A DNA stretch of 64,000 nt. It comes from Diplonema papillatum (Eukaryota). The translations under genes and the position numbers were made by a program. The stretch covers positions 141,284 through 205,283 of the forward strand of contig JAPJBO010000372.1 in the NCBI GenBank assembly GCA_030068145.1, given 5' to 3'. The notes under the pieces were generated by a model that worked only from the letters and a program-made list of their open reading frames with translations, did not search any database and was not told the DNA's origin. Of this stretch, positions 28,145 to 61,812 are shown piece by piece. The stretch's first letter is position 1. Every line of letters begins with the position of its first letter.

Positions 28145-29907
28145 GCTTTTACACCCACACACGCCGTGGTCGTGCTTTCGTGACGGGAGGCACCACGTTT
28201 ACACACACGCGCGCACACACATGGGGTAGCAGTCGTCAGCATTGCAGAAGGCTTGGCGACAAGTGACTCGCGCCACTTCCCCGTGCGAGCGAGTCTCGGA
28301 ACAGGACTCAAAACTGTGACCCAGGTAGTGACTGCCGAATGCTTGCACCAAGAGTTTGGAACAGCTAGTCAGGCCAAGCTCATTGCACAGAGAGAGCATG
28401 CCACATCCTCGGGTGAGATGTGCCGCCTGTGTGAAGACACTCAACTGGTGCCCGGGGCCGAAAACCCCGTGCAGCTATCACCGCAAGATGAAAACAGGTG
28501 TCTTGAGCCGAGTGCCGGATGGAGAAGCTGACAGCCTCCCACGCTCTATCCGTTTCCTGAAGAATCCCGCCCCACCCACCGAGTCACAGGACCCAAAAGC
28601 AGCGTGTCGGAAACTCAAAGCTGACTGGTGAAAGTGACAAGTGGGCTATATTTCGATTCAGACGTTACCCACACAGCCCTGAACTTAACACACACACGCA
28701 CAGCAAAAAAGGCCGTCTTACAGAAAAAGAGAAAGACGAACGCTGAAAACATCGCCGATTTGTGGATGAAGGTCCATGCTTCTGACGACGAGCCTGAGTA
28801 CACGACGGAAGGCACACAACCTTTTGTGTTGGGCAGAAGCAGCGCCATAGCCGCAGGTGCAGCCCTCCTGACAAGTGATTCCATCAGTGAAGAATCAGGC
28901 TCAAACCCTGGTGAAGCACTCGATTAAGTAAGCAAATGCGCGGGCTCTTCTCGAACTGAGATAATTATCTCAGCGAGCTCATTCTCCCATGTGGCGCAAA
29001 CGTGTCCTTTGTCACGGCTAGGTTGGAGTCTTTTCAGGCTCACAGCCCATCAGTGGACTCCCTTCCAGCAAGGTAGCTGTTGCGAACTTTGCCAACAAAC
29101 AGTGTCCATTCATTCTGGTCTCTGTTTTCACCCTCAGAGTTTGTTCGTGCGCATAGTGAGAAAGCAAATGCAGTCTTGGCTAGGAATGTCAGTGTTCAAA
29201 TTGAACAACTCGATGTTGAGAAGGCACCTTTCCCATGTGCTGATTCCACAACAGATACAGACCACAACCAGAGCGACTGCACACGGTTAGCACGGGGAAA
29301 TCCGCAACGCCGCGGGAAGGGGAAACCAGTTTAGGTTGTCGTCTAGCAGAACAATTGTCAATATATCTCGCGCAGTGACCTCTTTTCCAACAAAAGGAAA
29401 CCGAATCCAGAAGGCGAACAATGGCGAATCTGACAGTCATCCACTTGAAGACGAACCAGTACACTCATATACTCGTATGCTTTGCTTTAATTAGGGTGTG
29501 TGGAAATTCTAAGCGTGCGTTTGAGTCGCTTTGTGGTGCTCACGCAAGGCCTGCTTTCGCGTCTTCCATTTTCAAAGCGCAGTAGCCTGCCAGCCTGATG
29601 CCAGTCATCTAGACCCCGCCAGCCAGCCAGCCGGTCAAGCCAAAACCGGTCGAAATACAGGCAATAACGCAGCGCCAAAACGGTCAAGGAAGCTACCCCC
29701 TGAGGTGATCCCTTCTGTGTGCTTCCACGGCCGGTTGCTTCATACCTCACGGTACGCCCATAATTGGGAATCATGCAATAAGGAACCAGGTTCTGCGAAG
29801 CAAACCGTGGAAGAATGGCAAGGGCGTGCAGAAATCTTGCGACCACGCACAAAAACAAAGGAAAATAGGACGACAAGCCGCGATTCACCTCAAACGCACA
29901 CATACAG

Positions 29908-32900
29908 GACAACAATGCATCCGCCACCCTTTTGAGAGTCGGGCCGCTCACTTACACGAAGAGCGAACACGAACACGTATGTTTTGAAAGAGATTCTAGT
30001 CATCTTGGTTTAACTCCGTTGTAATTACTGTCCGGGTCTAGTTGGGAGCTGATCATTGGCGGCTTGCGTCGCTCATATAATATATATTATATACGCACCT
30101 TTGACTGACGTCAGACCCACACGCAGAGCACGAAGACGAAGAACAGAACGAGGAAGAATGATCCGGGTCAACCAATTGGCGGCCAAAGAGATACATCTCC
30201 TTCTTCAACTTTTCTGAATAAAAGCAGCAATAGTGTTCCAAACCATTGAACCCTTCACACAGATTCTTTGCGAACCAAAAGCTTTTGTGGTTGTCCCCCC
30301 GAGACACTACTGCATTGTCGAGAATCCTGTGCAGCGAAAAGACGATGGTACTCCGGTTCTCGACAGCGAGGGGTATGCCCAAAATCACCGCTGCATTTCG
30401 CATCTCTCCCCTCGGAAAAATTAAATTCAGGGTAATCGTTATTCAAGCGGAGGTTTCTAGGCTGACACAATTGTCTTTCTCTGGGTCTTTGAAAGGCTAC
30501 CAAAAGCCCATCGCAGATCTCGATTCATTTTGTTGGCCGTCTGCCTCCGGTAACGCAGCTCAGGTACATACCATACACACACTATACACGCATTACCTAA
30601 TGCAGGCAAGCTGTCGTTCAGCTTGGCGACAGCGAGATTCGAATGGATTGCGCACCATTCCCGCTGTACCCTGGCGAACAGCTCAGCAAGGCAGTGCCAC
30701 TTCCACTGCAAGTTTTGCCTCCCAACATGGCCAACCGAGTCAAGGCGACGAGGAACTTTGATGACAAGGTATGCCTGCTGTTTCATGTCAAGCCGAAGTG
30801 CTCCGATTTGTTGCCAGGACTGGCCCCACCGGTTGATATGGTTGCATACAGCGACCCGAACCACACTGCTCCCTCCTGCACCCATCAGTTCCGGGCTTGC
30901 GGGTTTGCGTGGGGGTGCAGTTCCTGCTACCGGTTAGCAGGCTTCTGAACGCGTTCCCGAATTGGTGGTCCCGAGCAGTTGAGGCGAAGTTCAAAGGCTG
31001 GGTTTCGTCCCGACTGACTTCGTACACCCGGGGCTCGCGTATTACTCCGTCTACGCTCTGCAAGCACCTTCCTTTTAAGATGGCTTCGACGCCCGTCTCT
31101 TCGGTTGCAGGAGGTTCTTGGTACACGCCGGCGAGGATGCTTGTTCCGGGCCCTCTTGGCAATGGCCGCGGGTCAAGTCAAAGGATGCAGAAAGTATGCG
31201 GGTCAAAGCGCTTGCACCAAATTTGGGGACGCGAAGAGGCAGTGTCGAAGATACCCAGGGGATGACGGTAGAGCCAGGTACCTGGATACCGTGGAACACG
31301 CAATTAATCTGCCTACGCCTACGCGCAGGCTCGCACAGCTCTCTCCCACAGCCGTCTGACAACGTTGTCGCGCGAAATGGAGCACCTTGCCCCGTCTTCT
31401 CTCTATTTTCCCGCTTTGCGTGTCCCGTATACTCCCGTTTCTCCCCTGTTGGATGGTATTAACAACAGGATTTGTGGTGGAAATCCTCCTTGACCCTCTG
31501 ACAGGGGACGGCTCCAACCCCCCCGACGTTTTTGCATTTCCACACCTCCTGTCGGGGGTTAAATGTACGGCCACTTTTTTGTTGTTGGGTTGGTCAGAAC
31601 ATACGCAAAGCAGGAAGAGTTAACACTCACACCAACAGCTTGCCGACGAGACGGTTGTAAAGAGGATTGCCGGCGATGAGTGGCTGGTTGAGGGCCCGTG
31701 CACGTACTACCCTCACGTGTGCAAGGAAGTCGTGCAGACAGTGAAGGCGAACTTCATCGGGAAGAACGAGGCGTTGAAGCTTCGCGCTGTCAACAAGTTC
31801 GTGGATCGGACGGGGACTGAGCGGAAAGTCGGGAGCGAGTGGCTGTGGGCAGAGTTTGGACCTTACATGCCGTCTGTGGACGAGATGGTGGTCGAGGTTG
31901 TGAAGGCGAACATTCTGTCTGAGATGAAAGCGATCCATGTGCACTGCTTGTACGCGTTCACCGACTGCTTTGGGCAGGAGAGAAGGGCAGGGGACCAGTG
32001 GTTGGTGACAAACAAGGACACCGAGACCTACATTCCGACACCGAACGAGACAGTGTCGAAGGAAGTACCGCTGTGTGTGTTGAACAAGAAGCAGTACTGC
32101 ATTGTGGTTGACCCTTACGACTCCAAGACGAAGATGAACCAGCTGAGCGTGCGGAAGCTTATCAAAGGCCCCAGCCGATTCTTCCTGCACCCTGGAGAGA
32201 AGCTGGAAGGAGGGTGTGCTAAGGACGTGTATGTGATGATGGCCGACGAGGCGCTTCTTCTAGAGGCGAGCGAAACATTCACCGACGAGAACGGTGTTGC
32301 ACGCGAGGCGGGAGACCTGTGGATGATCAACGGGCCGTGCGAGTACATCCCCCCTGTGCAAGTTGTTGTGGTTGAAAAGAGGACAGCCATGGCCATGCAC
32401 GAGTACGAGGGTGTGTACGTGAGAGATCTGAAGACTGGTGTTGTGCGCTCACAGATGGGCCCGTGCAGCTACATGTTGCAGGCTGGGGAGGAGTTGTGGG
32501 AAAAGGAACTGTCGCAGGAGGTGGAAGGCCTGCTGGGCAAGATCACTGAAGGCTCCACCCGAGGCACGTGGAGCACAAAGGCTGGCTCGAGCACGCGAGA
32601 CAGAACGCGAGTCATTGTGTACTCGGTGCCGCACAACTCTGTGTGCCAGATCTTCGACTACAAGACGAAGACATCGCGCTGCATCTGCGGTCCTGACATG
32701 GTCAGTTTGAACCCTGACGAAGAATTCACTGTCATTTCGCTGTCAGGCGGAAAGCCCAAGGTTTGTATTTGTCCACTGTATCATGGGGTCATCAAACGGT
32801 GAAGTGGGTTCTTTCTGTTTGCATGAGGACACGCAGGTGCACATCACAATTGTCGGAATTGCTGAACTCTTGGTCTTCTTGCACTGTGTTGTCAAACATT

Positions 32901-34156
32901 TCGAAGTATGCCAAGTACCATGTATGCACGCAATGCAAATCCCTCAGGTTGCCGGGCGGATCAAGTGTCTTTCGCTGTTCTTGGGACCCGACTTCATGAC
33001 TGACAACATCAAGGTGGAGACAGCGGACCACGCCAGGTTGGAACTGCAGCTATCGTACAGCTGGCGTTTTGCAGTGGACCCGAAAGATAAGACGGCGGTG
33101 CGGAAGGTGTTCAGCGTTCCGGACTTCGTGGGAGACAGCTGCAAGGCGATTGCAAGCAAGATCAGAGGCTGCTGTGCAGGTGTCACATTCGACAACTTCC
33201 ACAAGAACTCATCGTCTATCATTCGATACGCTGTTTTCGGGTCGAAGGATGCGTGGATCTCGGGTGGGCGTCCTCTGTCCGTCGGAGATGTCATCGTGAC
33301 GGCAGACGGGAAGAAGGAGAAGGTGACCAAAATCGACAAGATGGAGGTGACAGCAGATTCTGGACCGGTGGCAGACCCGACGACGCTGGCGACAGCAGAT
33401 GGGAACGAGATCAAGCGGGGCAAGTGGCCGCACGAGGCTTTGCACTTCAACAACGGGTTGGTGATTTCGAACGTCGACATCCAGAGCATGGAACCTGTGG
33501 ACCAGAAGACAAAGGACAGCTTGATCAAGTCGGTGCAGCTTGCCATCCACATCACGACGCAGAGCCAAGAGGCGGCGGCGAAGCACAAGGCTACAGAAGA
33601 GGAGCAAAAGGCACGTGGTGAGCTTGAGTCGCAGCTGATCAAGGACAAGGCAATGTCAGAAAGGGAACGCATGAAGCTTCTTCGACTCAAGGCAGAGTCG
33701 CAGACCATCGAGACGTCGGGGGCCCAACGCGCGGAAGCTCAAGCAGCCGCTGAGGCAGCGCGTGTTGAAGCTAAGTCGCTTGTGGAGCTGGCCAGGATGA
33801 AGGCAGAGGCGCAAAAGATTCAATCCCAGATGGACGTCGATCTCGACAATGCCCGCTGCAGCGAAGAACTGAGACACCAGGAATCGATGAATTCCTTAGA
33901 AGTCGACAAGGCCCAGTTCTTGGCACGTATCGAGGCAGACAAGTTCAAGAAGACGGTCGGATCCATTGGCAAAGACACCATCCAGGCGATCGCTCGTGCA
34001 GGACCCGAGAACCAAGTCAGACTTCTCAAGGCGCTCAACCTGCAAGGCTACATGGTCACAGATGGGTCTTCTCCCATCAACCTGTTCAACGCTGCTCAGG
34101 GCATGACAGGCCAGATGGCAAACCAGGCTAACGCAATCGTTGCTGGCGCTCACTAG
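29908..34156 (+). CDS. MVP: Major vault protein, copy 1; resolved exons 29908-29976, 30263-30372, 30606-30768, 31639-32760, 32948-34156; the 5'-most exon with the ATG is not found
   Basis: Translated exons align along vertebrate MVP: DNNASATLLRVGPLTYTKSEHEH (MVP: VSRVEVGPKTYIRQDNERV), ILCEPKAFVVVPPRHYCIVENPVQRKDDG (MVP: VTVPPRHYCTVANPVSRD), QAVVQLGDSEIRMDCAPFPLYPGEQL (MVP: LEIRLAQDPFPLYPGEVL), then the 374-codon repeat-domain exon (LADETVVKRIAGDEWLVEGPCTY...YSVPHNSV...LSGGKPK) and the shoulder/cap-helix exon (GPDFMTDNIKVETADHARLELQLSY...VQLAIHITTQSQEAAAKHKATEEEQKARGELES...DGSSPINLFNAAQGM, stop tag at 34154-34156). All introns are GT-AG with consistent phases. Confidence 0.9.
30074..30113 (+). 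promoter_or_regulatory. Candidate promoter elements upstream of MVP copy 1: an AT-rich TATA-like block and a perfect CRE-like palindrome TGACGTCA (30106-30113)
   Basis: Direct read: gctcatataatatatattatatacgcacctttgactgacgtcagac, about 150 bp upstream of MVP exon 3 and about 100 bp downstream of exon 2. Position relative to the unidentified first exon is uncertain. Confidence 0.15.
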
Positions 34157-34689
34157 GAATAGAGGCATCTCTGCTGGTCTGAAAGTCTTATCTGACAGAA
34201 CTGATAATGACGAAATGGTACACGCGCGAAGCACTTTCTCTAGCCTCCATTTGTTCCACCCCCTTTTTCTTTTTCTTCCCTATCTTCTAATATTTTTTTC
34301 TCGGCAGGGGAATGCCCTCTGCCAAACTATTTTTACACTCAAAAGCAAAGAAGCCTGCAACACCTGCGTCAAGTCCCCGAGCTTCATCGAATCCTGCACA
34401 ACACCGCCACGGCAACCTCCGGCTTCGCGCTGCTTTTTCTGCTGAAGGTGCAGAGAACATGCCCACACTATGATGATGGGCGTGTGAGAGAACTAGCCAA
34501 GATGTTGCGTTATGTCGATTTTCGGTGTGGCAATTGTAACAACAAACAACGCATTTTTCGAGACTGGAGGTCCTATGAACATGCAATGTGAATAGCCTCT
34601 ATTCGAGCCAACCCGGCTTTTCTTCATGAAAAAAGTGTATTGTTTTTGGAAAGAGCCGGGCAAGCTTTTTTTTTTCCTCGCAGAAGGTA

Positions 34690-34765
34690 TGCGGGTGGCA
34701 GAGTGACCGGGCGCCGGCCTTCAGACCGGTGAGTCCGGGTTCGAACCCCGCCCATGACATTTTTC
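34690..34765 (+). repeat. tRNA-derived SINE-like head (degenerate tRNA with pol III A-box tggcagagtga and B-box gggttcgaacccc, followed by a ttttt run); further copies at 38110-38175 (-) and 41040-41100 (-)
   Basis: gggtggcagagtgaccgggcgccggccttcagaccggtgagtccgggttcgaaccccgcccatgacattttt. I could not fold it into a canonical cloverleaf (acceptor and T stems do not pair), so it is called a tRNA-like repeat rather than a tRNA gene. Confidence 0.5.
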
Positions 34766-34859
34766 CGGTCGAAGATTGTTTTCGAGGTTTGTTGCGTTTC
34801 GGGGTCAAATGTGCCCGAAAATTGCGTTTTTGGCGGAGTTTCTCAGTATCTCGCGGTAT

Positions 34860-35470
34860 TTGGGTCACCCCGGGAAACGGAGTCGGGCGGCCGAGCTTGC
34901 CATCACAGGCCAAACTTGCTACGAGAACCGAACTTTGCTTCACCAGAACTCAGCTTCGTGCGAACTTTGCTTCGTCTGCGCCCGTACCAGAATTTAGCAT
35001 CGCCCGAACTTTGCTTCGCCAGAACTTAACTTCGCCCGAGCGTTGCTTCGCCCGAACTCAGCTGCGCCCGAACTTTGCTTCACCAGAACTTAGCTCCGCC
35101 CGAACTTAGGATCACTCGAACTCATTATCGTCCGAACTGAGCTTCACCAGAACTTAGCTCCGCCCGAACTTTTGCTTCGCCGGGGGGCGGCGGGGGGGGC
35201 GCCCACCCGGGTAGCAGCGCCAAACTTTTCCCGCACTCGGTGGGTCGGGGGGGATCCGGGGGGGGTGTCCCCCCCCGGGTACGAGCACCGACCTTGGCTT
35301 CACCCGGACTTTACACCCTGGCCGAACTTCGCTTCGTGCCCGAACTGTTTTTTAGTACCAGCGCAGCCTGAGGGCTTAGCAACGCCCGAACTAAGCATCA
35401 CTCGAACTTAGCTTCACCAGCATTGCCCGAACTTAGCTTCGCCCGAACTTTACTGTTCCCCGAACTTTAA
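34860..35470. repeat. Minisatellite, unit about 21-22 bp (gcccgaacttagcttcgccagaact and variants), with an embedded G/C-homopolymer block at 35180-35280
   Basis: Tandem units read directly (ccgaactttgcttcaccagaactcagcttcgtgcgaactttgcttcg...). The inverse array is at 37690-37930, with a short piece at 38250-38320. Confidence 0.7.
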
Positions 35471-38400
35471 CTGCTGCCTCCAGTCTCGCCACGCGCCGGC
35501 CTTAGCCGAGCGCACGTACTCAACGTGTTTGTTTTTGTAGTAGCTCACGGCAGCCTTTCCTAGAGTTGAGCACGAGTGGCACGACATGGTTTTGTTCTCT
35601 CGTATCATAGCTAAGAGCAGAAAGAGATCCAGCGGGCATCGCAGTGCTACTGAACAGGAAAATAATCTTTAAGAGCAAGCAATGGAGACAACACGGACAG
35701 ATTGCACCAGAGACAGGAAGTGCAACAAAATCGAAAAGCAACAGACAGTACTGCAATCCCGGTCGTCAGAACACAAAAGAACTCTCGAAGGAAAAATCTC
35801 ATCTTTGCGTACGCAGAGGTGTGAGACCTCCTAAACGTTTTGAATGCTCTCGTGACGCCTACGCCAACGTACCCGAGTCAGTAGAGTGTTGTCCCTGAGG
35901 ATGAGCTGCCGGCCGGGTCAGACGACACCATCTGCCGCAGGTTCAGCAATTGCTGGGCATGCAATGGCGAAAAAATTGAACGGCCCACTCAACGAAGCAA
36001 TGAACGAATCAATAAATAATGGGTCATGATGCAATGTTCTTTCGGAACAGGGGAATGCAGAGGGATGCGCACTCTTCACGAAGAAAGCTGAGCTTTCTCA
36101 CCCAAGCCAACCTCTTTCTCAATACGACGTTTTCCCTCTCACCAATCCTGGGTTCTATTTTTTGCAGACAGCTCTGTGAAGTTGTAGCTTTGCGAGGCCC
36201 CGGCAAGCTTGCAAAGTCAAGCAGGGCTGTACCCCTCTGCCGCATCGTGAACAGTAGGTTTGTTCTGGTTGGTGCCTCTCACCTCTGCCCTTCCCGGATT
36301 TCTCCCTTTATGATGCTTTGTTTTTTTTGTCCCATTCGAGCCAACTCTACCCAGCGGAAGTCGGCAAGGAACTCCATTACATAAGGGCGACCGTAGATTG
36401 CAAAGACGTTGTATAAACTGTGTAAATGATTCCATGATGAGGAGATCAAGTCGTTCTGGCCGAGAAGAAATCTAAGCTGCCGGTCAGAACTAGTGTTGAC
36501 AGTGGTTCAAAAACAGAGAACACATGACGCTTTCATTGCATGTTGTCGCCTCTATTCGCGACAGGTGAAACATCCGCATAGATTCACGGCTTTCAAGATC
36601 TCTGCGCCACCTTGTACTTCAGGTGGAACCGTGCTTTCAAGAGTATGCAAGACCGTGAGAGGAACTGCACACAGCTAAGACCGGGGGGGAAACACGAAAT
36701 GCTGCAGGATCGTGAAAACCCAGGTTTAGTTGTCGTTTCGGAGAACCAGCTGACTCGTTCACTCTGGCCGCTTTGCCAAAACACATCTCATGCAGTGATC
36801 TCTTCTCCCCGCCAACAAGAAAGAGAACAATCAAAACGAAAAATGGCGAATCTGACTGTCATCCACTTGAAGACGAACCAGTACACTCACATACTTGTAT
36901 GTCTCCTCAGTTGAATCGAGCGTGGTAGTCTTTCGATGGACTAGAGACACAGCATCAATACGAGATGCCAACCCGAGGCTGGTTATTATTGAAGGATGTC
37001 ACTTAGCCCGGAGGCCTCCAGGGCTTGGCGCCTCTCGAGGCTGGGGCACTAGGCGAAGCTTTGAGGGCTGAGGGCTAAGGTTGTGCCTGGGCCGAGGCAG
37101 CACAGATCGCCCGGACAAGGCTCGAACATGAAACCAACCGGTCGTTAGGCCATGTTTTCGCATCGAAGACCCCTGTGAGAGCGTGTATCGTGCACGAGGT
37201 TTTTGTTCCGACTGAGCATGCCACCCGCATTATTGTCAGACAGGCCGCCCCAGCCAAACTCCACCTAGTGCATCTCGAATCGGGCGGTGCGATATCACAA
37301 GCATCACCCTACCATAAAAAACCTTGAGTACAGTCATCCGGGCTCCACAACTCCAGCTCTCAGCCCAGGCTGGTCACCTTTAGTTGTCTAGCAGGGTGAA
37401 GTCTTCTGCCGACTCTACCAGTCCCAAAACGATTGGTCTGCAAACCCGCCAGCGCCTGCCACATCCGGAGTGAATCCGTGTTCTCTTACTTTGTTTTGGA
37501 GGGGTTAGTTTAGAAGCGTGATGAGTAGAGCTCTCCCGCATTAGTGCGAAAGGGGAGACTCTTAAGGGGGGGTGCGAAACGGGAGGTCCTTCCATGTGGC
37601 AGATGTCAACTTGCTACCAGCAGAAATTCAACAAAGTACGTGCGCTCGGCTAAAGACCGGCGCGGGGCGAGACTGGAAGCAGCAGTTAAAGTTCGGGAAA
37701 CAGTAAAGTTCGGGCGAAGCTAAGTTCGGGCGATGCTAAGTTCTGGTGAAGCTCAGTTCGCTAAGTTCAGCGATGCTAAGTTCGGGCGAAGCAAAGGTCG
37801 GGCGATTCTGGTGAAGCTCAGTTCGACAATGCTAAGTTCGAGTGATGCTAAGTTCGGGCGAAGCAAAGTTCGGGCGAAGGGGAAGTTCGGGCGAAGCAAA
37901 GTTTGGGCTCTGAGATGCTGAGTTCGGCGTGTGGTAGCGCAAGTTTGGCCTGTGATGGCAAGTTCGGCCCCAGTACCCGGGGGGGGTGACCCCCCCGGAC
38001 CCCCCCCGACTCCGTTTCCCGGGGTGACCCAAGTACCGCGAGATACTGAGAAACTCCGCAAAAAACGCTAATATCGGGCCCCTGGAACGCAACTAACCTC
38101 GAAAACAATCTTCGACCGGAAAAGTGTGATGGGTGGGGTGCGAACCCGGGCCTACCAGCCTAAAGGCCGACGCCCGCTCACTCTGCCACCCCCCCCCCCC
38201 CCCCCCCTTCAAACCCAAGAAACATTTTCCCCCCCGGGTACTGGCGCTAAACTTGCTACCACACGCCGAACTCAGCGTCACCAGAACCCGAACACAACTT
38301 GCTTCGCCCCAACTTTGCTGTGTTTTTCTTGTCGTATAGGATCGAAGATCTTAGAAGATTTATACCTATTCCGACGAGAACTAACACTTGTTCAAAGGTT

Positions 38401-38640
38401 ATTACCCCGTCGCTCCCGAGAAAAACACCGTAATTTTACCCCTCGCTTGAAGAAGAAGTTCGTGGCATACACAAGAGAATCTTTGCATGACCTTTCTACG
38501 TTTGTTACGCACCATCAATCTGGCATCACACACCAGCAAGGACGAGAGCAGCGTATGGAGCAGCGAGACGGGCGAGGAGGAGAGTATCACCAGACAATGC
38601 CTGCATTGGGGCTCGACAAAGAAAGAAAGGGGAAAGACAC

Positions 38641-40760
38641 CATAGATGGCCGTTATATAACGTTATATAACGTTATATAACGTTATTCCCGGAGTTATTT
38701 GTTACCCCCCCCCTAAATCCAGAAAAACCGTTATTGACCGTTATAAAACCGTTATTTGCCATTTTTGGTAAAAATAACGTTATTTGACCGTTATAACGTT
38801 ATATAACGTTATATAACGTTATAATAACGGTATAATAACGTTATATAACGTTATAATAACGTTATATAACGTTATAATAACGTTATATAACGTTATATAA
38901 CGTTATATAACGGTTTTTTACCAATCCATGGGAGGTCACACTGTCCTCCAGATTTTGGTCATTTTTGGCCATTTTTGCCACATTTTCCAGATTTTGGCCA
39001 ATTTTGGTTATTTTTGCCAATTTTTCCAGATTTTGGTCAATGTTGACCAGTTTTGCCGTGTTTTCCAGATTTTGGCCCATTTTGGCCGTTTTTACCGATT
39101 TGGCCAGGATTGGCCATTTTTGCCATGTTTTTCAAAAATTTGGCTATTTTTGCCGATTTTTCCAGGTTTTGGTCATTTTTGGCCAGTTTTGCCATGTTTT
39201 CCAGACTTTGCCCATTTTGGCCGTTTTTGCCGATTTTTCCAGGGTTTTGGTCATTTATGCCCTGCCCCTCACCAGAGCTATTCTTGTCTGAGTTTCTTAA
39301 ACCCGCACAAGCTCGAACAGGCAGTCCGTGCGCGGAAAAAAAAAAAGGTCGAAAGACACCAATCTGTACACCCATTCGGGATCGTCGGAAACACAAAAAC
39401 ACGTGTACCGCCCCACCCGCTTCGATTTCAGCCACACTAGTCTTTCCAAAGGGAATATCGACTATGCCTGCGAAAAGCTCCCCGAAGGTCCAGCCGAAGC
39501 CGAAGGTTCAACCTAAAGCTCAGCCGAAAGCTCAGCCGAAGACCCCAGGTACACAGCGCAAACGGCCTCGCGCCGAAAGTACGGATAGCAACAGCAGCAG
39601 CAGCAGCGCCTCGGTTGCAAAGGCGCGACGCGGAAGGAAGAAGGTGGCGGAAACGCTGCGCGTCGAGGCCTTGTCCCGCGACCTGGCATTGACTGGCCCC
39701 AGCGTTCTCCCTGTCACGAAACCACCAAGTAAGAGCCCGGAACAACGATTCATCGACCGGATCAAGAAAACCGACCCCGGGCTGGCTGGGTTCTACGGGA
39801 AGCGCCAGCTGTGACTGCTCGACTTTGCATGTCTCGTGCTCATCATGCACCCATATTTGGTACTGGGACCTTGTCTGACTGGCATAGTACGCAACGGTCT
39901 GCCGAGTGGACAAGCTTGGACAAGTTGGACTCCAGTGGCCGGATCATGCTGGTGACATCTGCTGCCTCACGAAGGACACTGCAAACGACCGTTACGGGCC
40001 ACCGACTGAGGGACACGCGCCGGAAACCCAAAACTGCAGACATCCACATCCCAAGAACAACATCGCACAGTGAAAGAGTCATGTGAATCCGGAAGGATCG
40101 CGTTTGTCGCGCTTGGGTGGAAGTCCGCAAGAAAATAAGTAAAAGAGAAAAAGCTCTGGGGAGGGGCTATACGGACCCCTGAGGACCGGTTACTACGAAT
40201 TCTTTTCGGACCAGGGTTTGTTTCCGAACAGTTTTTGTGACCGGGATCCAAAAATCGGCAAAAGTCTGGAAAAATTGGCAAAAATGGCCGAAATTGACCA
40301 AAATCTGGAAAATCGGGAAATCTGGAAAAATCGGAAAAAATGGCCGAAATTGACTGATCTGGATAAATCGGCCAGAGTGGCCAAAATCTCAAAATTGTCC
40401 AAAATCTTGAAAAATCGGCAAAAATGGCCGAAATCTGGAAAAATCGGCAAAGATTGCCGAAATCTGGAAAAAATCGGCAAAATGGCCAAAACCTGAAAAA
40501 ATCGGCAAAAGTCTGGAAAAATTGGCTAAGATTGACCAAAATCTGGCAAAAATGGCCAAAATCGGAAAAAATGGCCGAAATGGACCAAAATGAGGAAAAA
40601 ATGACAAAAATCTGGAAACATGGCCAAAATCGGAAAAATTCTAAAAACCGTTATTTGCGTTATTTTTTCCGTTATTTTGCGTTTTCGACCGTTATTTAAC
40701 GTTATATAACGTTATATAACGTTATCACCGTTATAACGTTATATAACGTTATATAACGTT
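38641..40760. repeat. Palindromic satellite domain: outer arrays of the self-complementary 10-mer ACGTTATATA (38641-38920; 40690-40760) and inner arrays of phased T-tract repeats about 10.5 bp apart (T-rich strand 38960-39290; A-rich strand 40230-40650)
   Basis: Left arm: cgttatataacgttatataacg... then ttttggccatttttgccacattttccagattttggccaattttgg.... Right arm is its reverse complement (aaaatcggcaaaaatggccgaaatctggaaaaa... then ...aacgttatataacgttatataacg). The unique centre at 39300-40190 holds the basic ORF below. The track ORFs 38928-39440, 38965-39291, 39967-40539, 40193-40489 and similar are satellite translations. Confidence 0.75.
39464..39814 (+). CDS. Small basic K/P-rich protein (116 aa) with PKxQ repeats, KRPR and RRGRKK AT-hook/NLS-like motifs; a hypothetical linker-histone/HMG-like nuclear protein
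   Basis: ATG at 39464 (ctATGcctgcgaaaagc), stop tga at 39812-39814. Sequence: MPAKSSPKVQPKPKVQPKAQPKAQPKTPGTQRKRPRAESTDSNSSSSSASVAKARRGRKKVAETLRVEALSRDLALTGPSVLPVTKPPSKSPEQRFIDRIKKTDPGLAGFYGKRQL. It sits exactly at the centre of the palindromic satellite. Composition is non-repetitive apart from the (A/V)QPK repeats. Confidence 0.35.
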   Translation: MPAKSSPKVQPKPKVQPKAQPKAQPKTPGTQRKRPRAESTDSNSSSSSASVAKARRGRKKVAETLRVEALSRDLALTGPSVLPVTKPPSKSPEQRFIDRIKKTDPGLAGFYGKRQL

Positions 40761-40779
40761 ATCAACCGGCCATCTATGA

Positions 40780-41235
40780 GACACACTATTCAAACATCAC
40801 CCATGCATTCAAGTCAAGAATTTCAACACCAGGCCCACCCGGGCTCCCCCGACAAACCCGCATGTCAAGTTCGGTATGTGGTGGCAAGGTCGACACCAGT
40901 ACCCAGGGGGGGACCCCCATCCCCGGGAAGTTTGGCACTCGTACCCTCCGGGGGCCGGCGGGGCGACCCAAATACCACGAGATTATGAGAAACTCCGCAA
41001 AGAAACGCAAATTTCGGGCACATTAGACCCCCGAAACGCAACAAACCTCGAAAACAATTTTCGACCGGAAAAGTGTGATGGGCGGGCCGAAGCCAGCTCA
41101 CGTATACTTTTGGGCAGGGGGGAAAAAAGCTAGCTCCGCGCTCGTATCCAGTCCAAAAGCTCGCAACACTAAAAGCCGGGTTGACTCGAATAGAGGCTAT
41201 TCACATTGCATGTTCATAGGACCTCCAGTCTCGAA
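40780..41235 (-). repeat. Third, inverted copy of the SINE-head/minisatellite/X-box module, abutting MVP copy 2
   Basis: 40990-41100 is the reverse complement of 34695-34990 (ctcgaaaacaattttcgaccggaaaagtgtgatgggcggg...). 41165-41232 (aaaagccgggttgactcgaatagaggctattcacattgcatgttcataggacctccagtctcgaaaa) is the reverse complement of 34553-34620, which lies immediately 3' of MVP copy 1. Confidence 0.55.
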
Positions 41236-41255
41236 AAATATTTGGAACAACACAG

Positions 41256-44200
41256 GACAACAATGCATCCGCCACCATTTTGAGAGTCGGGCCTCTCACT
41301 TACACGAAGAGCGAACACGAACACGTATGTTTAGGCTCGTTCGTCTTTCACTGTTGCCCACACGCACCATCGGCAAAACCCCTGCAAGAACGAAATCAAC
41401 GGGGCATCTTCAAGTGTTGTGACTGACTGCCCCACAGTTGGAAAACAAGATCTTGGTTGTTGTCAGACTCCCCCCCTAGGCATACATTCTGGAGGGAGTC
41501 TGACAGCAAGGCAAGACCTTTCTTGCTGTCGTTGGGAAATTTGAAACCTGGGTTTAGCTGACCTCATTATCCTAAAAAAGTGCGCCGTCACTCTTCTTGC
41601 AAACCAACCTCTCCTCACAGATCCTCTGCGAACCGAAAGCTTTTGTGGTTGTCCCTCCGAGACACTATTGCACGGTTGAGAATCCTGTTCAGCGGAAGGA
41701 CGATGGAACTCCGGTTCTCGACAGCGAGGGGTATGCCAAAAGTTACCTGTTGCATCACAGGCCTGCACTTCACAGATTTCCTCATCAGGAAATAACATTC
41801 ATCGATAATTTTAGGTTTCCAGGTTGACCCTCAACGGGTTTCCAACCATTCTTTGCCTGCAGAAAGCTGCGACGGAAGACCAGTTTCTAACATAATGCAG
41901 ATCATCATCAAAAAGTCTCCAAACGGCGAAACGCCTTCCGACGAATCATGCCTGCGGTCTCACTAGGTTGTCCTGTTGCGCAGCGTTCTCTTTTGCTCAG
42001 TTACATACCATACCCAAACCATTTACACACCACCAATGCAGGCAAGCTGTCGTTCAGCTTGGCGACAGCGAGATTCGAATGGATTGTGCACCATTCCCGC
42101 TGTACCCTGGCGAACAGCTCAGCAAGGCAGTGCCACTTCCACTGCAGGTTTTGCCTCCGAACATGGCCAACCGAGTCAGGGCAACGAGGAACTTTGACGA
42201 CAAGGTATGCCTGCTGTTTCACAGCCCGAGACCCGACCCAATAGCTGCGGCCAGCGCTTCGCGGAAGAAATAGGCGTTTTCAGACGTCTACGCTGAAGCT
42301 TTCCGCTCAGTCGTACATGACATCGCTGCACCCTATTTCGTGGTGTTCCGGCGGGGAAAAGAACGTTGGGCCAAGAACCGAAAAGTCGGCTTCCACTACG
42401 ACCTTGAGCTTTCGGTGGGTAGAGGTTCCACGGGGGCCACCGTGGACCCTAAGAACGTGAAACGTATCCCGTATAATGATCCCAAGCGCCGCGTATCAAC
42501 TAGGATACGCGACGGTGGAGAACCTGACGCGACTCCTGTCCAACAAGCGCAACGCTTCAGCGGCGTTGCTGCTCGTCACTGCTGCTTGGGGCGGGGTACT
42601 GCCGAGACACCAGGCCTGCATCACCCGTTGTTGGTTGAAAAGATCCCTCCGTTCTTCCCTCTTTCCTATGTGCTTCCGAACCTTTACGTGTCATACCCTC
42701 ACCAACAGCTTGCCGACGAGACGGTTGTAAAGAGGATTGCCGGCGATGAGTGGCTGGTTGAGGGCCCGTGCACGTACTACCCTCACGTGTGCAAGGAAGT
42801 CGTGCAGACAGTGAAGGCGAACTTCATCGGGAAGAACGAGGCGTTGAAGCTTCGCGCTGTCAACAAGTTCGTGGATCGGACGGGGACTGAGCGGAAAGTC
42901 GGGAGCGAGTGGCTGTGGGCAGAGTTTGGACCTTACATGCCGTCTGTGGACGAGATGGTGGTCGAGGTTGTGAAGGCGAACATTCTGTCTGAGATGAAAG
43001 CGATCCATGTGCACTGCTTGTACGCGTTCACCGACTGCTTTGGGCAGGAGAGAAGGGCAGGGGACCAGTGGTTGGTGACAAACAAGGACACCGAGACCTA
43101 CATTCCGACACCGAACGAGACAGTGTCGAAGGAAGTACCGCTGTGTGTGTTGAACAAGAAGCAGTACTGCATTGTGGTTGACCCTTACGACTCCAAGACG
43201 AAGATGAACCAGCTGAGCGTGCGGAAGCTTATCAAAGGCCCCAGCCGATTCTTCCTGCACCCTGGAGAGAAGCTGGAAGGAGGGTGTGCTAAGGACGTGT
43301 ATGTGATGATGGCCGACGAGGCGCTTCTTCTAGAGGCGAGCGAAACATTCACCGACGAGAACGGTGTTGCACGCGAGGCGGGAGACCTGTGGATGATCAA
43401 CGGGCCGTGCGAGTACATCCCCCCTGTGCAAGTTGTTGTGGTTGAAAAGAGGACAGCCATGGCCATGCACGAGTACGAGGGTGTGTACGTGAGAGATCTG
43501 AAGACTGGTGTTGTGCGCTCACAGATGGGCCCGTGCAGCTACATGTTGCAGGCTGGGGAGGAGTTGTGGGAAAAGGAACTGTCGCAGGAGGTGGAAGGCC
43601 TGCTGGGCAAGATCACTGAAGGCTCCACCCGAGGCACGTGGAGCACAAAGGCTGGCTCGAGCACGCGAGACAGAACGCGAGTCATTGTGTACTCGGTGCC
43701 GCACAACTCTGTGTGCCAGATCTTCGACTACAAGACGAAGACATCGCGCTGCATCTGCGGTCCTGACATGGTCAGTTTGAACCCTGACGAAGAATTCACT
43801 GTCATTTCGCTGTCAGGCGGAAAGCCCAAGGTTTGTATTTGTCCACTGTATCATGGGGTCATCAAACGGTGAAGTGGGTTCTTTCTGTTTGCATGAGGAC
43901 ACGCAGGTGCACATCACAATTGTCGGAATTGCTGAACTCTTGGTCTTCTTGCACTGTGTTGTCAAACATTTCGAAGTATGCCAAGTACCATGTATGCACG
44001 CAATGCAAATCCCTCAGGTTGCCGGGCGGATCAAGTGTCTTTCGCTGTTCTTGGGACCCGACTTCATGACTGACAACATCAAGGTGGAGACAGCGGACCA
44101 CGCCAGGTTGGAACTGCAGCTATCGTACAGCTGGCGTTTTGCAGTGGACCCGAAAGATAAGACGGCGGTGCGGAAGGTGTTCAGCGTTCCGGACTTCGTG

Positions 44201-45226
44201 GGAGACAGCTGCAAGGCGATTGCAAGCAAGATCAGAGGCTGCTGTGCAGGTGTCACATTCGACAACTTCCACAAGAACTCATCGTCTATCATTCGATACG
44301 CTGTTTTCGGGTCGAAGGATGCGTGGATCTCGGGTGGGCGTCCTCTGTCCGTCGGAGATGTCATCGTGACGGCAGACGGGAAGAAGGAGAAGGTGACCAA
44401 AATCGACAAGATGGAGGTGACAGCAGATTCTGGACCGGTGGCAGACCCGACGACGCTGGCGACAGCAGATGGGAACGAGATCAAGCGGGGCAAGTGGCCG
44501 CACGAGGCTTTGCACTTCAACAACGGGTTGGTGATTTCGAACGTCGACATCCAGAGCATGGAACCTGTGGACCAGAAGACAAAGGACAGCTTGATCAAGT
44601 CGGTGCAGCTTGCCATCCACATCACGACGCAGAGCCAAGAGGCGGCGGCGAAGCACAAGGCTACAGAAGAGGAGCAAAAGGCACGTGGTGAGCTTGAGTC
44701 GCAGCTGATCAAGGACAAGGCAATGTCAGAAAGGGAACGCATGAAGCTTCTTCGACTCAAGGCAGAGTCGCAGACCATCGAGACGTCGGGGGCCCAACGC
44801 GCGGAAGCTCAAGCAGCCGCTGAGGCAGCGCGTGTTGAAGCTAAGTCGCTTGTGGAGCTGGCCAGGATGAAGGCAGAGGCGCAAAAGATTCAATCCCAGA
44901 TGGACGTCGATCTCGACAATGCCCGCTGCAGCGAAGAACTGAGACACCAGGAATCGATGAATTCCTTAGAAGTCGACAAGGCCCAGTTCTTGGCACGTAT
45001 CGAGGCAGACAAGTTCAAGAAGACGGTCGGATCCATTGGCAAAGACACCATCCAGGCGATCGCTCGTGCAGGACCCGAGAACCAAGTCAGACTTCTCAAG
45101 GCGCTCAACCTGCAAGGCTACATGGTCACAGATGGGTCTTCTCCCATCAACCTGTTCAACGCTGCTCAGGGCATGACAGGCCAGATGGCAAACCAGGCTA
45201 ACGCAATCGTTGCTGGCGCTCAGTAA
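41256..45226 (+). CDS. MVP: Major vault protein, copy 2 (tandem paralog); exons 41256-41324, 41621-41730, 42042-42204, 42709-43830, 44018-45226
   Basis: Exon structure is identical to copy 1. Exons 2-4 are about 90-97% identical to copy 1 with diverged introns. From 15 bp upstream of the exon-5 acceptor to the stop codon (42694-45221 versus 31624-34151, offset exactly 11070 bp) the two copies are identical at every position I compared, including intron 5. The final codon differs (cag taa versus cac tag; Q versus H) and downstream sequence is unrelated. Track ORF 42340-43872 reads through intron 4 and is not the true CDS. Confidence 0.85.
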
Positions 45227-45861
45227 ATGGGATAGCCACAGTAAGTTCGGCCTCGAGTTGCATATGTACACACACAATCAAGTATAATAATACTGTTGCC
45301 TAAAGGCAAACGCAGGTGTGTAAGAGTTTCGATTCAGTCCTGAAACTGTCTGACATACCTGGATCGGCTAGCGTTCGATCTGCCCCAATACGGGAATCAA
45401 CCAAAGATTAAAATCTTCCGTTCTGTCTTTCTTCTCTTTTTTTTTGCCACCCCGAGGGCCGTTGCTCTTGGGGGTTCATTCTATATTTTCCCGGTCTGCA
45501 CTACAGCAATTCGCAGAACTTCCCTCTCTTTGCTCCAACCGACTTTCAGCTTCCTCTCTTTCTGAGAGTAGCATATGGGGCCATCGCTCCGGAATCGTTA
45601 GTCTTTTCTTTTTTTCCCCCCGGAAGTAGCAGCAAGGTGTTATCCTACAAGTGTGGGTGTGCCGGTGGAGCTCGATCCTCGCATTTAGCAACTGCACAGA
45701 GGACAAATTGGATGTTGAGCAAATTAGTAGCGTTTTGCACCGGTGGTGCCGTATTACCTGCATCTGCAGGATGTAACTTCGCGCAATGAAAAATAAAGCC
45801 CCATCAAATGCTAAAGGCCGCCGCTGTAGTACGGGAAACAAACTGCCCAGAGAGGTAGTTT

Positions 45862-55560: not shown

Positions 55561-55580
55561 GGGGGACAAGACCCGGAAAC

Positions 55581-56072
55581 CCCGCAAACCCGCAAACCCG
55601 CAAACCCGCAAACCCGCAAACCCGCAAACCCGCAAACCCGCAAACCCGCAAACCCGCAAACCCGCAACCCGCAAACCCGCAAACCCGCAAACCCGCAAAC
55701 CCGCAAACCCGCAAACCCGCAAACCCGCAAACCCGCAAACCCGCAAACCCGCAAACCCGCAAACCCGCAAACCCGCAAACCCGCAAACCCGCAAACCCGC
55801 AAACCCGCAAACCCGCAAACCCGCAAACCCGCAAACCCGCAAACCCGCAAACCCGCAAACCCGCAAACCCGCAAACCCGCAAACCCGCAAACCCGCAAAC
55901 CCGCAAACCCGCAAACCCGCAAACCCGCAAACCCGCAAACCCGCAAACCCGCAAACCCGCAAACCCGCAAACCCGCAAACCCGCAAACCCGCAAACCCGC
56001 AAACCCGCAAACCCGCAAACCCGCAAACCCGCAAACCCGCAAACCCGCAAACCCGCAAACCCGCAAACCCGC
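55581..56072 (+). repeat. (CCCGCAAA)n 8-mer satellite array 1, about 61 units (complement TTTGCGGG)
   Basis: Near-perfect units with one 7-mer variant at about 55667. The array ends at cccgcactagaaatgagcacatggtctaagcacgttaggagagttggttttggtgtgctttccgccaa. Confidence 0.9.
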
Positions 56073-56643
56073 ACTAGAAATGAGCACATGGTCTAAGCAC
56101 GTTAGGAGAGTTGGTTTTGGTGTGCTTTCCGCCAAAGAAGGCCAAGTCAAGGCTTCGTGGCCAGATTTGGTCGCAAAATCTTCATCCTTCTCCTTCCCCT
56201 TTTCCTTCCAGGGTCTGTTTTCCTGTGGCGCTGGCACTGCCCGACCGCCCCTGTTTCTTTTCCTTAAAATTTTGGACAACCAACGATTTAAAAGCTACAG
56301 TTTCTGTACTTTATTGGTACTTTAACACACCTTGACAGCCTAAGGGCTGCTATTTTGGCTTGGCCAGGTCCCTCTTGAAGGGGCCTGGCCTTTCTTTTAT
56401 CAAACATTGCCTTGGAGAGCATAGCCCTTTCATGGGGGACAAGAACCTGACCTGCACCTCCTCGTGGTGTCCCTCGGAAACGTGCCAAAACAAGGCACGG
56501 CTGACGCAGGCAGTATTTGTTGATGCATTTCCCCTTTTTCTTCAGGTGGTGGGATCCAAAAAATCACCGGATGCCCAAAAAACGCATTTCAAGGTCAATC
56601 CCTTGAAACCTGTGCAAGATGTGTTTTTACTTTTCCTTCAATT

Positions 56644-58259: not shown

Positions 58260-60260
58260 TCCCTAAGGCCTCACCTGGCCAGGGCTTCCCACTTGCTGCC
58301 TTCTCTCATGCAGAAGAGGGGAAAAGTGGATTCCAGATTTTGGTACCGGATTTCAGGTGGCCTCACTTGGCCAGGGCTTCCCACTTGCTGCCATCTCTCA
58401 TGCAGAAGAGGGGAAAAGTGGATTCCAGATTTTGGTACCGGATTTCAGGTGGCCTCACTTGGCCAGGGTTTGGGTTCAGGTCTTCAGCCTTTCTCTTTCC
58501 CTTCAGACTTTCCTTCCAAAGAATCAAAAGAAGGCCAAAGCTCCCACAAAGGAAGCCAAGGCTCACTGTAAGCATAGGCAAACTGCCATTCAGGGTGTTT
58601 AAGTACCAATAAAGTACAGAAACTGTAGCTTTTAAATCGTTGGTTGACCAAAATCTGAAGCAAAGGAAACACTGCATTTGAAAGATCCTTGTGCAACTGG
58701 GTCCCCAGTCCCTGGTCCCCAAAAAACCCAACTTCGGGGAATTGACCAAAAATCGATTTCTCCTTCTCCTTCTCCTTCTCCTTCTCCTTCTCCTTCTCCT
58801 TCTCCTTCTCCTTCTCCTTCTCCTTCTCCTTCTCCAAATTTTAAGGAAAAGAAGCAGAGGGGGTTGGGCAGTGCTGGCGGCCTTGGACTCAGCCGTCCCT
58901 AAGGCCTCACCTGGCCAGGGCTTCCCACTTGCTGCCTTCTCTCATGCAGAAGGGGGGAAAAGTGGATTCCAGATTTTGGTACCGGATTTCAGGTGGCCTC
59001 ACTTGGCCAGGGCTTCCCACTTGCTGCCTTCTCTCATGCAGAAGGGGGGAAAAGTGGATTCCAGATTTTGGTACCGGATTTCAGGTGGCCTCACTTGGCC
59101 AGGGCTTCCCACTTGCTGCCTTCTCTCATTCCAGATTTTGGTACCGGATTTCAGGTGGCCTCACTTGGCCAGGGCTTCCCACTTGCTGCCATCTCTCATG
59201 CAGAAGAGGGGAAAAGTGGATTCCAGATTTTGGTACCGGATTTCAGGTGGCCTCACTTGGCCAGGGTTTGGGTTCAGGTCCCTAGCCTTTCTCTTTCCCT
59301 TCAGACTTTCCTTCCAAAGAATCAAAAGAAGGCCAAAGCTCCCACAAAGGAAGCCAAGGCTCACTGTAAGCATAGGCAAACTGCCATTCAGGGTGTTTAA
59401 GTACCAATAAAGTACAGAAACTGTAGCTTTTAAATCGTTGGTTGACCAAAATCTGAAGCAAAGGAAACACTGCATTTGAAAGATCCTTGTGCAACTGGGT
59501 CCCCAGTCCCTGGTCCCCAAAAAACCCAACTTCGGGGAATTGACCAAAAATCGGATTTTCTCCTTCTCCTTCTCCTTCTCCTTCTCCTTCTCCTTCTCCT
59601 TCTCCTTCTCCTTCTCCTTCTCCTTCTCCTTCTTTTCCTTCTCCAAATTTTAAGGGTCGGGCAGTGCTGGCGGCCTTGGACTCAGCCGTCCCTAAGGCCT
59701 CACCTGGCCAGGGCTTCCCACTTGCTGCCTTCTCTCATCAGAAGGGGGGAAAAGTGGATTCCAGATTTTGGTACCGGATTTCAGGTGGCCTCACCTGGCC
59801 AGGGATTCCCACTTGCTGCCTTCTCTCATGCAGAAGGGGGGAAAAGTGGATTCCAGATTTTGGTACCGGATTTCAGGTGGCCTCACTTGGCCAGGGCTTC
59901 CCACTTGCTGCCTTCTCTCATTCCAGATTTTGGTACCGGATTTCAGGTGGCCTCACTTGGCCAGGGCTTCCCACTTGCTGCCTTCTCTCATGCAGAAGGG
60001 GGGAAAAGTGGATTCCAGATTTTGGTACCGGATTTCAGGTGGCCTCACCTGGCCAGGGATTCCCACTTGCTGCCTTCTCTCATTCCAGATTTTGGTACCG
60101 GATTTCAGGTGGCCTCACTTGGCCAGGGCTTCCCACTTGCTGCCTTCTCTCACGCAGAAGGGGGGAAAAGTGGATTTCAGATTTCAGTGGTGGATTTCAG
60201 GCGGCCTCACCTGGCCAGGGCTTCCCACTTGCTGCCATCTCTCAGGCAGAAGAGGGGTAA
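58260..60260. repeat. Tandem repeat family with a 91-bp unit (cctcac(c/t)tggccagggcttcccacttgctgcc(a/t)tctctcatgcagaag(a/g)ggg(g)aaaagtggattccagattttggtaccggatttcaggtgg) plus shorter deletion-variant units of about 64 bp; three blocks (58260-58480, 58890-59280, 59690-60250), each followed by the same roughly 300-bp tail
   Basis: Unit starts are at 58269, 58360 and 58451 (period 91). Variant units lack atgcagaag..gtggatt (for example 59100-59165). Each block is followed by the same tail (58480-58760, 59280-59560, 60380-60660: ...ccaaagaatcaaaagaaggccaaagctcccacaaaggaagccaaggctcactgtaagcataggcaaactgccattcagggtgtttaagtaccaataaagtacagaaactgtagcttttaaatcg...). Part of that tail is the reverse complement of the 5S spacer segment 56262-56330. 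Confidence 0.8.
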
Positions 60261-61151
60261 AGTGGATTTCATGAGAAGATTTCTGGTCAATTTCAGGAAA
60301 CTTTTTCCCTAAAACCATTTTAGTCAGAAGAAAGCCAAGGCCACCCAAAGGTAACCAAGGCTATTGCACAATAGCCCATAGGGCATTCCCTTCAGACTTT
60401 CCTTCCAAAGAATCAAAAGAAGGCCAAAGCTCCCACAAAGGAAGCCAAGGCTCACTGTAAGCATAGGCAAACTGCCATTCAGGGTGTTTAAGTACCAATA
60501 AAGTACAGAAACTGTAGCTTTTAAATCGTTGGTTGACCAAAATCTGAAGCAAAGGAAACACTGCATTTGAAAGATCCTTGTGCAACTGGGTCCCCAGTCC
60601 CTGGTCCCCAAAAAACCCAACTTCGGGGAATTGACCAAAAATCGGATTTTTGGGGTATGTCCCCAACAAGCTCCGTGAGTCAATTGCACGAAAAAGAGAC
60701 CCCACTTTGGATTTTTACTGATATTTGGGTTGGGGGGGGGGATCTCAGCCATTCGTTCCTATGAGGTGCTGTTGGCAGTGGTTTTGGTAGTGTTTCCTAT
60801 AGAAGGGTCATATGCCCTTAACTTCGTGAATCAAAACATTGGACGAATACTGGCCAAAATCAGGAACCCGTAGTAGGTTTGAATCCAGATCGATCCGATG
60901 GGTTCATTCCATCTATCCTTCAAATGTGATCGGCCTCAACGAGGCCACTCAGACCCAAAAGTCGATTTTTCAAGTTTCAGAGGGCCATTCGTAGATCGAA
61001 TAATGGTCAAAACCAAAAACCCGTAACTGGCCTGAAACCTCCCGAAAGATCTGGATTCATTGGTGCTATAATTTTCAGATTTTCGAAGTTTAAAAAAACA
61101 TTCCTCCACCGGTACAGTTTTGACCCGCAATTTCGCAAAAGGTAGGGAGTA

Positions 61152-61812
61152 ACCCGCAAACCCGCAAACCCGCAAACCCGCAAACCCGCAAACCCGCAAA
61201 CCCGCAAACCCGCAAACCCGCAAACCCGCAAACCCGCAAACCCGCAAACCCGCAAACCCGCAAACCCGCAAACCCGCAAACCCGCAAACCCGCAAACCCG
61301 CAAACCCGCAAACCCGCAAACCCGCAAACCCGCAAACCCGCAAACCCGCAAACCCGCAAACCCGCAAACCCGCAAACCCGCAAACCCGCAAACCCGCAAA
61401 CCCGCAAACCCGCAAACCCGCAAACCCGCAAACCCGCAAACCCGCAAACCCGCAAACCCGCAAACCCGCAAACCGCAAACCCGCAAACCCGCAAACCCGC
61501 AAACCCGCAAACCCGCAAACCCGCAAACCCGCAAACCCGCAAACCCGCAAACCCGCAAACCCGCAAACCCGCAAACCCGCAAACCGCAAACCCGCAAACC
61601 CGCAAACCCGCAAACCCGCAAACCCGCAAACCCGCAAACCCGCAAACCCGCAAACCCGCAAACCCGCAAACCCGCAAACCCGCAAACCCGCAAACCCGCA
61701 AACCCGCAAACCCGCAAACCCGCAAACCCGCAAACCCGCAAACCCGCAAACCCGCAAACCCGCAAACCCGCAAACCCGCAAACCCGCAAACCCGCAAACC
61801 CGCAAACCCGCA
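61152..61812 (+). repeat. (CCCGCAAA)n 8-mer satellite array 2, about 82 units, same orientation and same 3' flank as array 1
   Basis: Units with occasional 7-mer variants at about 61470 and 61580. The array ends at cccgcactagaaatgagcacgtgaccgaagcaggttaggagagttgggtttggtgtggtttccgccaag. Track ORFs 60936-61886, 61007-61813 and 61090-61797 are artefacts. Confidence 0.9.

Follow-up and report, generated by a model that had tools for sequence, protein, structure and literature searches.

The human fetal globin genes HBG1 and HBG2 are reportedly tandem paralogues that share one sharply bounded, near-identical segment, intron sequence included, while the rest of the two genes has diverged. The pattern, a textbook case associated with the names of Slightom, Blechl and Smithies (1980), is said to reflect interlocus gene conversion; the converted part is reportedly the 5′ part, and its boundary a simple-sequence repeat inside an intron. 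A comparable arrangement is described here from the diplonemid Diplonema papillatum. The stretch analysed, 64,000 nucleotides of contig JAPJBO010000372.1 (assembly GCA_030068145.1, positions 141,284 to 205,283, forward strand; hereafter the window), contains two tandem genes for the major vault protein (MVP). Unlike in the globin pair, the homogenised part is the 3′ part, and its boundaries are the limits of alignable homology. The two genes are old paralogues, and non-allelic (interlocus) gene conversion between them has very probably homogenised the block formed by exon 5, intron 5 and exon 6, recently and probably more than once.

A second comparison comes from Kinetoplastida, the sister group within Euglenozoa. 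Tandem arrays of Trypanosoma brucei undergo concerted evolution by gene conversion, with non-coding boundaries isolating the copies (Jackson 2007, PMC1855330). The D. papillatum pair resembles these arrays in that polycistronic, same-strand tandem duplicates have had parts of their repeat units homogenised. In the trypanosome, moreover, coding sequences and untranslated regions (UTRs) can differ in history, and it is rearranged non-coding boundaries that isolate copies (PMC1855330). Unlike the T. brucei arrays, which are intronless and often multi-copy, the D. papillatum locus has just two copies, each with five introns; homogenisation is confined to the 3′ 2.5 kb, and both edges are set by unalignable intron and UTR sequence.

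For MVP itself, several genes per genome are also found in other protists: MVP1-3 in T. brucei, MVP-alpha and MVP-beta in Dictyostelium, and the paralogues of other diplonemids. Trypanosome MVP paralogues co-assemble into one vault shell, and those of T. brucei are 52-58% similar (PMC12547018). Unlike the D. papillatum pair, these protist paralogues lie apart from one another, and their divergence extends over the full gene, without a homogenised segment.

Both genes in the window are MVP1-type major vault protein genes and old tandem same-strand paralogues. Translations of exons 5 and 6 match the Pfam vault repeats PF01505, PF17794, PF17795 and PF17796 (best E-value 1e-55) and the MVP_shoulder family PF11978 (E-value 1e-42). 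A protein search returned D. papillatum KAJ9455593.1 (908 amino acids, aa) and KAJ9455594.1 (797 aa) at 100% identity; both are annotated "major vault protein", and they are separate NCBI genes on one 208-kb contig. The next relatives, at 62-70% identity, are MVPs of other diplonemids (D. ambulator, Rhynchopus, Flectonema and Lacrimia), and annotated animal and amoebozoan MVPs are 40-50% identical. A 2025 paper lists two MVP1 entries for D. papillatum (Table S3) along with one divergent MVPx (PMC12547018); one of the two, DP_P001658, is the EukProt entry for the downstream gene, here copy 2. Each copy holds an intact 908-aa open reading frame (ORF), and the two proteins differ at four of the 908 residues: L26I, I59T, K124R, and the C-terminal H/Q. 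The genes are 2.7 kb apart (34157-36842).

Comparison of the window with itself, at an offset of 11,070 bp, reveals a tract of 2,523 bp without a single mismatch or gap (Table 1). The tract starts 9 nt upstream of the exon-5 acceptor AG and stops one base short of completing the last sense codon. Just upstream of its 5′ edge three of five positions match, and beyond these there is no alignment. At its 3′ edge, copy 1 reads CAC TAG (His-stop) and copy 2 reads CAG TAA (Gln-stop); in the 600 nt compared 3′ of both stops no alignment was found, scores being like those of shuffled sequence. The two diagnostic 3′ junctions are …GCTCACTAGGAAT and …GCTCAGTAAATGG. Register is kept at each end, as are frame and splice sites, and neither insertions nor filler sequence were seen at the junctions. 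An earlier note, made by reading the DNA letters alone, had described an identical tract of about 2,528 bp starting about 15 bp before the acceptor, and had proposed an exact alignment to look for scattered mismatches. None emerged, and the loss of identity at the stop codon is as described; the length and the 5′ edge needed correction. The same note placed two MVP genes in the same orientation 11,070 bp apart. The genes and their orientation stand, but that offset is true for the tract only (it is 7,422 for exon 1 and 11,348-11,436 for exons 2-4).

Chance is excluded as the cause of this identity. Within the tract there are no differences at about 524 synonymous sites, nor at any of the 187 positions of intron 5. 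Had the tract diverged as exons 1-4 have, about 175 differences would be expected (Poisson probability of observing none, about 6e-77). By a Sawyer/GENECONV-type criterion, an identical coding run of 2,327 nt among 25 coding differences has a probability bounded at about 4e-20 (maximum-spacing bound). Neutral divergence in the tract has a 95% upper bound of about 0.4%, which is at least 60-fold less than the synonymous divergence (dS) of 0.25 in exons 1-4. This tract is the only long perfect repeat within the window; another window repeat, of 939 bp, retains 21 mismatches and 7 gaps.

The 5′ parts of the genes have a different history. Of the 396 sites in exons 1-4, 23 differ between the copies (3/54 in exon 1, 2/69 in exon 2, 12/110 in exon 3, and 6/163 in exon 4), corresponding to 89-97% identity per exon. 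Introns 1-4 score like shuffled sequence in alignment, except for 8-48 nt at the splice sites. The earlier observation of diverged 5′ exons beside unalignable introns is therefore confirmed. Upstream of the ATG, only about 150 nt retains 67% identity between the copies. Nearly all of the exon differences are silent: 19.5 of the 23 are synonymous, giving dS 0.25, nonsynonymous divergence (dN) 0.012, and dN/dS of about 0.05. Dozens of non-synonymous changes would be expected had the copy-2 exons been left untranslated, so both 5′ halves appear to be translated and functional; the ratio implies that the copy-2 5′ exons are probably under purifying selection.

Two further features of the 5′ parts bear on their past. 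Among the 5′ exons, exon 3 stands out by its higher divergence (Fisher p = 0.014). Codon bias is moderate (effective number of codons 48), and the introns are unalignable at an exon dS of only 0.25. Together, the unalignable introns and the excess divergence of exon 3 suggest that older, rare, exon-limited conversion may have occurred in these 5′ islands, and hence that the process goes further back and recurs instead of having happened once.

The pattern as a whole is that expected of gene conversion: diverged or unalignable sequence lies on both sides of an identical block, with copy number and register unchanged. Because the tract is in register, with frame and splice site kept as in homology-guided repair, gene conversion is the best explanation. 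Homologous recombination operates in this organism, in which targeted integration works, and the genome is haploid (PMC10161547 and its reference 29). Since the genome behaves as haploid, the two copies are not alleles. In the proposed sequence of events, a break or gap in one copy would be repaired with the neighbouring copy as template. Heteroduplex and DNA synthesis would traverse the 2.5 kb of continuous homology and halt at its edges, because neither intron 4 upstream nor the 3′ UTR downstream offers alignable sequence. The mismatch at the third position of the last codon and the two unlike stop codons adjoin this heterology, and might be left unconverted. The 5′ exons (54-163 nt) would be short islands of homology between unalignable introns, rarely converted and free to drift to a dS of about 0.25. 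The outcome would be two proteins differing at four residues, expressed with unrelated 3′ UTRs. The proposal of recent gene conversion or homogenisation in the earlier note is thus borne out as the best-supported reading: silent sites and an intron are identical, the flanks are diverged, and the register is kept. That note also regarded the sharp boundaries, aligned with gene structure, as unusual for the simple decay of tandem duplicates. The boundaries are real and are not unusual for conversion: alignable homology forms only one long block, and they are its edges.

Base composition is compatible with this explanation. The GC content of third codon positions is 0.72 in the homogenised exons 5-6 (31639-34153) versus 0.62 in exons 1-4 of both copies, which fits GC-biased gene conversion, in a small sample (the 5′ part has only 132 codons).

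Three points weigh against conversion. A conversion that extends to the final homologous base still requires homology in order to be resolved; stalling of the heteroduplex at heterology may account for this. Other diplonemid genomes examined show single or dispersed MVP genes only. Finally, short-read correction could have erased a few paralogue-specific variants, so that identity is perhaps slightly below 100%.

The likeliest of the alternatives is itself improbable. A single non-homologous replacement or partial re-duplication, of the template-switching type (fork stalling and template switching, FoSTeS, or microhomology-mediated break-induced replication, MMBIR), might have placed exons 5 to 6 of one gene over those of the other, with breakpoints falling by accident at the acceptor and the stop. 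Such an event would explain why identity ends abruptly without flanking homology for classical resolution, and repeats and tandem duplications of parts of genes abound in the genome (PMC10161547). However, both junctions are in register with the recipient, without an indel and with frame and splice site intact. This is improbable for breakpoints chosen independently of homology, and insertions or filler at the junctions are absent.

Next, and likewise improbable, is an artefact of assembly or read correction, in which the two copies are real but their differing 3′ parts have been flattened to one consensus; in its extreme version, the tract is present only once. The assembly procedure gives this some force. 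PacBio coverage, computed from the read table, was only about 19x; short reads served to correct the long reads ahead of assembly with Canu; and the Canu contigs were then merged with short-read (Celera) contigs. Such correction tends to make two independent noisy consensus sequences identical over 2.5 kb. Against this, the tract is shorter than the mean PacBio read (8.5 kb, with reads up to 45 kb), so reads anchor in the unique flanks. Moreover, a linear path must join both 5′ halves and both 3′ flanks to the tract, so at least the tract ends exist twice. The 939-bp window repeat shows that repeats about 97% identical were not flattened. The 5′ exons (23 substitutions, mostly synonymous), introns and 3′ flanks differ between copies, which largely answers the worry about assembly duplication. 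The two-copy structure is therefore well founded, and tract identity is at least about 99.9%, with literal base-perfection subject to read correction. Conversion does not depend on literal identity, because near-identity beside unalignable flanks suffices; even at 99% the contrast with those flanks would persist and would still require conversion.

A third alternative, much less probable than either of these, invokes an RNA or complementary DNA (cDNA) template: a partially processed transcript whose 5′ edge lay at a splice acceptor, for example an internal spliced-leader (SL) acceptor. The 5′ edge of the tract is indeed at an acceptor, and all D. papillatum mRNAs are SL trans-spliced. Yet both copies retain intron 5 and have 9 nt of intron 4 in common; conservation next to the acceptor is of like extent in the unconverted introns 1-3. 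A cDNA would also have brought the 3′ UTR of the donor, whereas identity stops at the last codon.

Purifying selection alone is scarcely credible as the cause, and is refuted by the identity of silent sites and of the whole of intron 5: diplonemids do share conserved MVP shoulder and cap-helix regions, but exons 1-4 reached their dS under equally strong protein constraint.

Other histories fail on the same evidence. A recent duplication of the whole gene followed by decay is inconsistent with introns 1-4 and 3′ flanks that are unalignable beside perfect identity, and simple unequal crossover would leave just one diverged side; both flanks are old and diverged, so neither event can account for the locus. 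It is also unlikely that a third paralogue supplied a replacement 5′ half. The only other reported MVP, MVPx (DP_006421), lies outside the MVP1 clade (PMC12547018), the 5′ exons are 94% identical, and no further D. papillatum protein was among the matches listed in the protein search.

Gene conversion at this locus may have relatives. The D. ambulator transcriptome contains MVPs in a two-by-two set (P0002/P0125 and P0123/P0124): the proteins are 918 or 812 aa long, end in K or H, and are otherwise identical (these are Trinity isoforms, as proteins only). This is the pattern expected if two MVP1 genes were homogenised up to the last codon there too, and it hints at long-term concerted evolution. 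Elsewhere, no tandem MVP pair was found at five loci (L001-L005) in three other diplonemid assemblies, each locus holding a single MVP, and one of these assemblies, ERZ25333236, has three dispersed MVP paralogues that are 72-81% identical throughout, without a homogenised part. A 23-mer from the 3′ end had no match in the JGI metagenome contigs scanned.

The relatives also differ in gene structure. The MVPs at the five loci are ORFs that continue uninterrupted where D. papillatum has its intron 5; one paralogue (P0010, 904 aa) lacks introns altogether. It follows that diplonemid MVP genes do not all share the D. papillatum introns.

D. papillatum genes stand in same-strand polycistronic clusters and are processed by SL trans-splicing, and control of their expression is thought to be mainly post-transcriptional (PMC10161547). 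A broader possibility, put forward tentatively, is that concerted evolution has been long-term, with a 3′ limit fixed at the last codon, in at least D. papillatum and D. ambulator. Selection might then keep apart two MVP1 mRNAs of nearly the same coding sequence, whose unrelated 3′ UTRs would serve as separate handles for post-transcriptional control.

The event is of a known kind, and calls for no new mechanism. It is nonetheless a clean, well-delimited case of probable interlocus gene conversion in a diplonemid, an abundant group of marine protists in which recombination has hardly been described. The term "gene conversion" was not found in PMC12547018 or in the D. papillatum genome paper (PMC10161547), nor in those of their supplementary files that were searched. 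The case points to mitotic or ectopic homologous exchange as a force that shapes paralogues in a haploid, repeat-rich genome. There are practical consequences as well. The 3′ 2.5 kb of the two genes are indistinguishable by short reads, RNA-seq, or peptides; to tell the copies apart one must use the 5′ exons, the last codon, or the UTRs. Knock-out or tagging of MVP by homologous recombination in D. papillatum must consider both copies.

The public model of copy 2 (KAJ9455594.1) should be extended to 908 aa. It is 5′-truncated, and intact exons 1-3 exist upstream. Exon 1 lies 4.36 kb upstream of exon 2, beyond a repeat-filled intron 1 of 4,359 nt (36897-41255). At codon 113 in copy-2 exon 4 (42149-42151), a synonymous change from CAA to CAG yields CTGCAG|GTTTTG; the NCBI model, which starts ML|VLPPNM, appears to take the AG of this sequence as an acceptor, which may reflect genuine alternative or SL splicing or else an artefact of annotation. 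At the other end of the gene, the last codon and stop of copy 2 (45221-45230) read CA|GTAAAT, which resembles a 5′ splice donor, and in the older EukProt model (P0001) the protein stops at ...VAGA and lacks the terminal Q. This cryptic donor is unlike the GTATG donors elsewhere in the gene, and the resemblance is probably coincidental.

Table 1. The MVP genes, their shared and diverged parts, and associated repeats; positions are those of the window
Feature	Position	Strand	Content	Basis or relation
MVP copy 1 (KAJ9455593.1, 908 aa, stop TAG)	29421..34156	+	exons 29421-29474, 29908-29976, 30263-30372, 30606-30768, 31639-32760, 32948-34156	protein mapped exactly; all introns GT-AG
MVP copy 2 (908-aa model, stop TAA)	36843..45226	+	exons 36843-36896, 41256-41324, 41621-41730, 42042-42204, 42709-43830, 44018-45226	alignment of copy-1 exons; in frame, GT-AG conserved
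Identity tract, copy-1 side	31630..34152	+	last 9 nt of intron 4, exon 5, intron 5 (32761-32947), exon 6 to second base of last codon	100% identical to 42700-45222
Identity tract, copy-2 side	42700..45222	+	includes intron 5 at 43831-44017	
Diverged 5′ part, copy 1	29421..30768	+	exons 1-4, introns 1-3; intron 4 follows at 30769-31638	
Diverged 5′ part, copy 2	36843..42204	+	exons 1-4, introns 1-3 (intron 1 4,359 nt); intron 4 follows at 42205-42708	
Left arm of large imperfect inverted repeat, 3′ of copy-1 stop	34553..35520	.	repeat X1 (34553-34890) and 16-nt tandem array (34928-35181)	inverted pairing with 37635-38191 at 77-94% and with 40959-41239 at 91-99%
Right arm of the large inverted repeat, in copy-2 intron 1	37635..38191	.		
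Foldback-like repeat element, in copy-2 intron 1	38641..40778	.	46-nt terminal inverted repeats (93%); inverted subterminal arrays of 10-nt (CGTTATATAA) and 39-nt units	
Repeat X3, third X copy, inverted relative to X1	40959..41239	.	ends 17 nt before copy-2 exon 2	

The sequence between the two tracts contains inverted repeats, most of whose material lies in copy-2 intron 1. The earlier note had treated these as a spacer between the copies; most of that spacer turns out to be copy-2 intron 1, exon 1 having been missed. The 2.1-kb loop of the large inverted repeat (35521-37634) holds copy-2 exon 1 and its 5′ UTR. The same note considered the repeats possible mediators of conversion. Nothing was found to support this: the arms do not touch the tract ends. 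The nearest arm on the copy-1 side starts 401 nt past the end of the tract (34553 versus 34152), and the last arm ends 1,461 nt before the start of the copy-2 tract (41239 versus 42700).

The repeats have features of their own. The arms of the large inverted repeat (about 0.8-1 kb) carry 16-nt tandem arrays (GAACTTAGCTTCGCCC) and motifs of G/C runs. The foldback-like element folds strongly as single-stranded DNA (z = -11). The 10-mer of its arrays, CGTTATATAA, is palindromic, and its centre holds a 253-aa ORF with abundant PK(V/A)Q repeats, which matched nothing in Pfam. More generally, no Pfam family matched the spacer ORFs, and the inverted-repeat material does not recur elsewhere in the 64-kb window.

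Simple repeats of another kind lie toward the 3′ end of the window. An 8-nt unit, ACCCGCAA, forms two arrays in the same orientation, at 55571-56073 and 61151-61812 (63 and 83 copies, with 98-99% matches). These arrays flank a block of 92/162-nt tandem repeats at 58267-60271. Base composition at 54-56 kb is extreme, with a GC content of 0.68 and an AT skew of 0.64.

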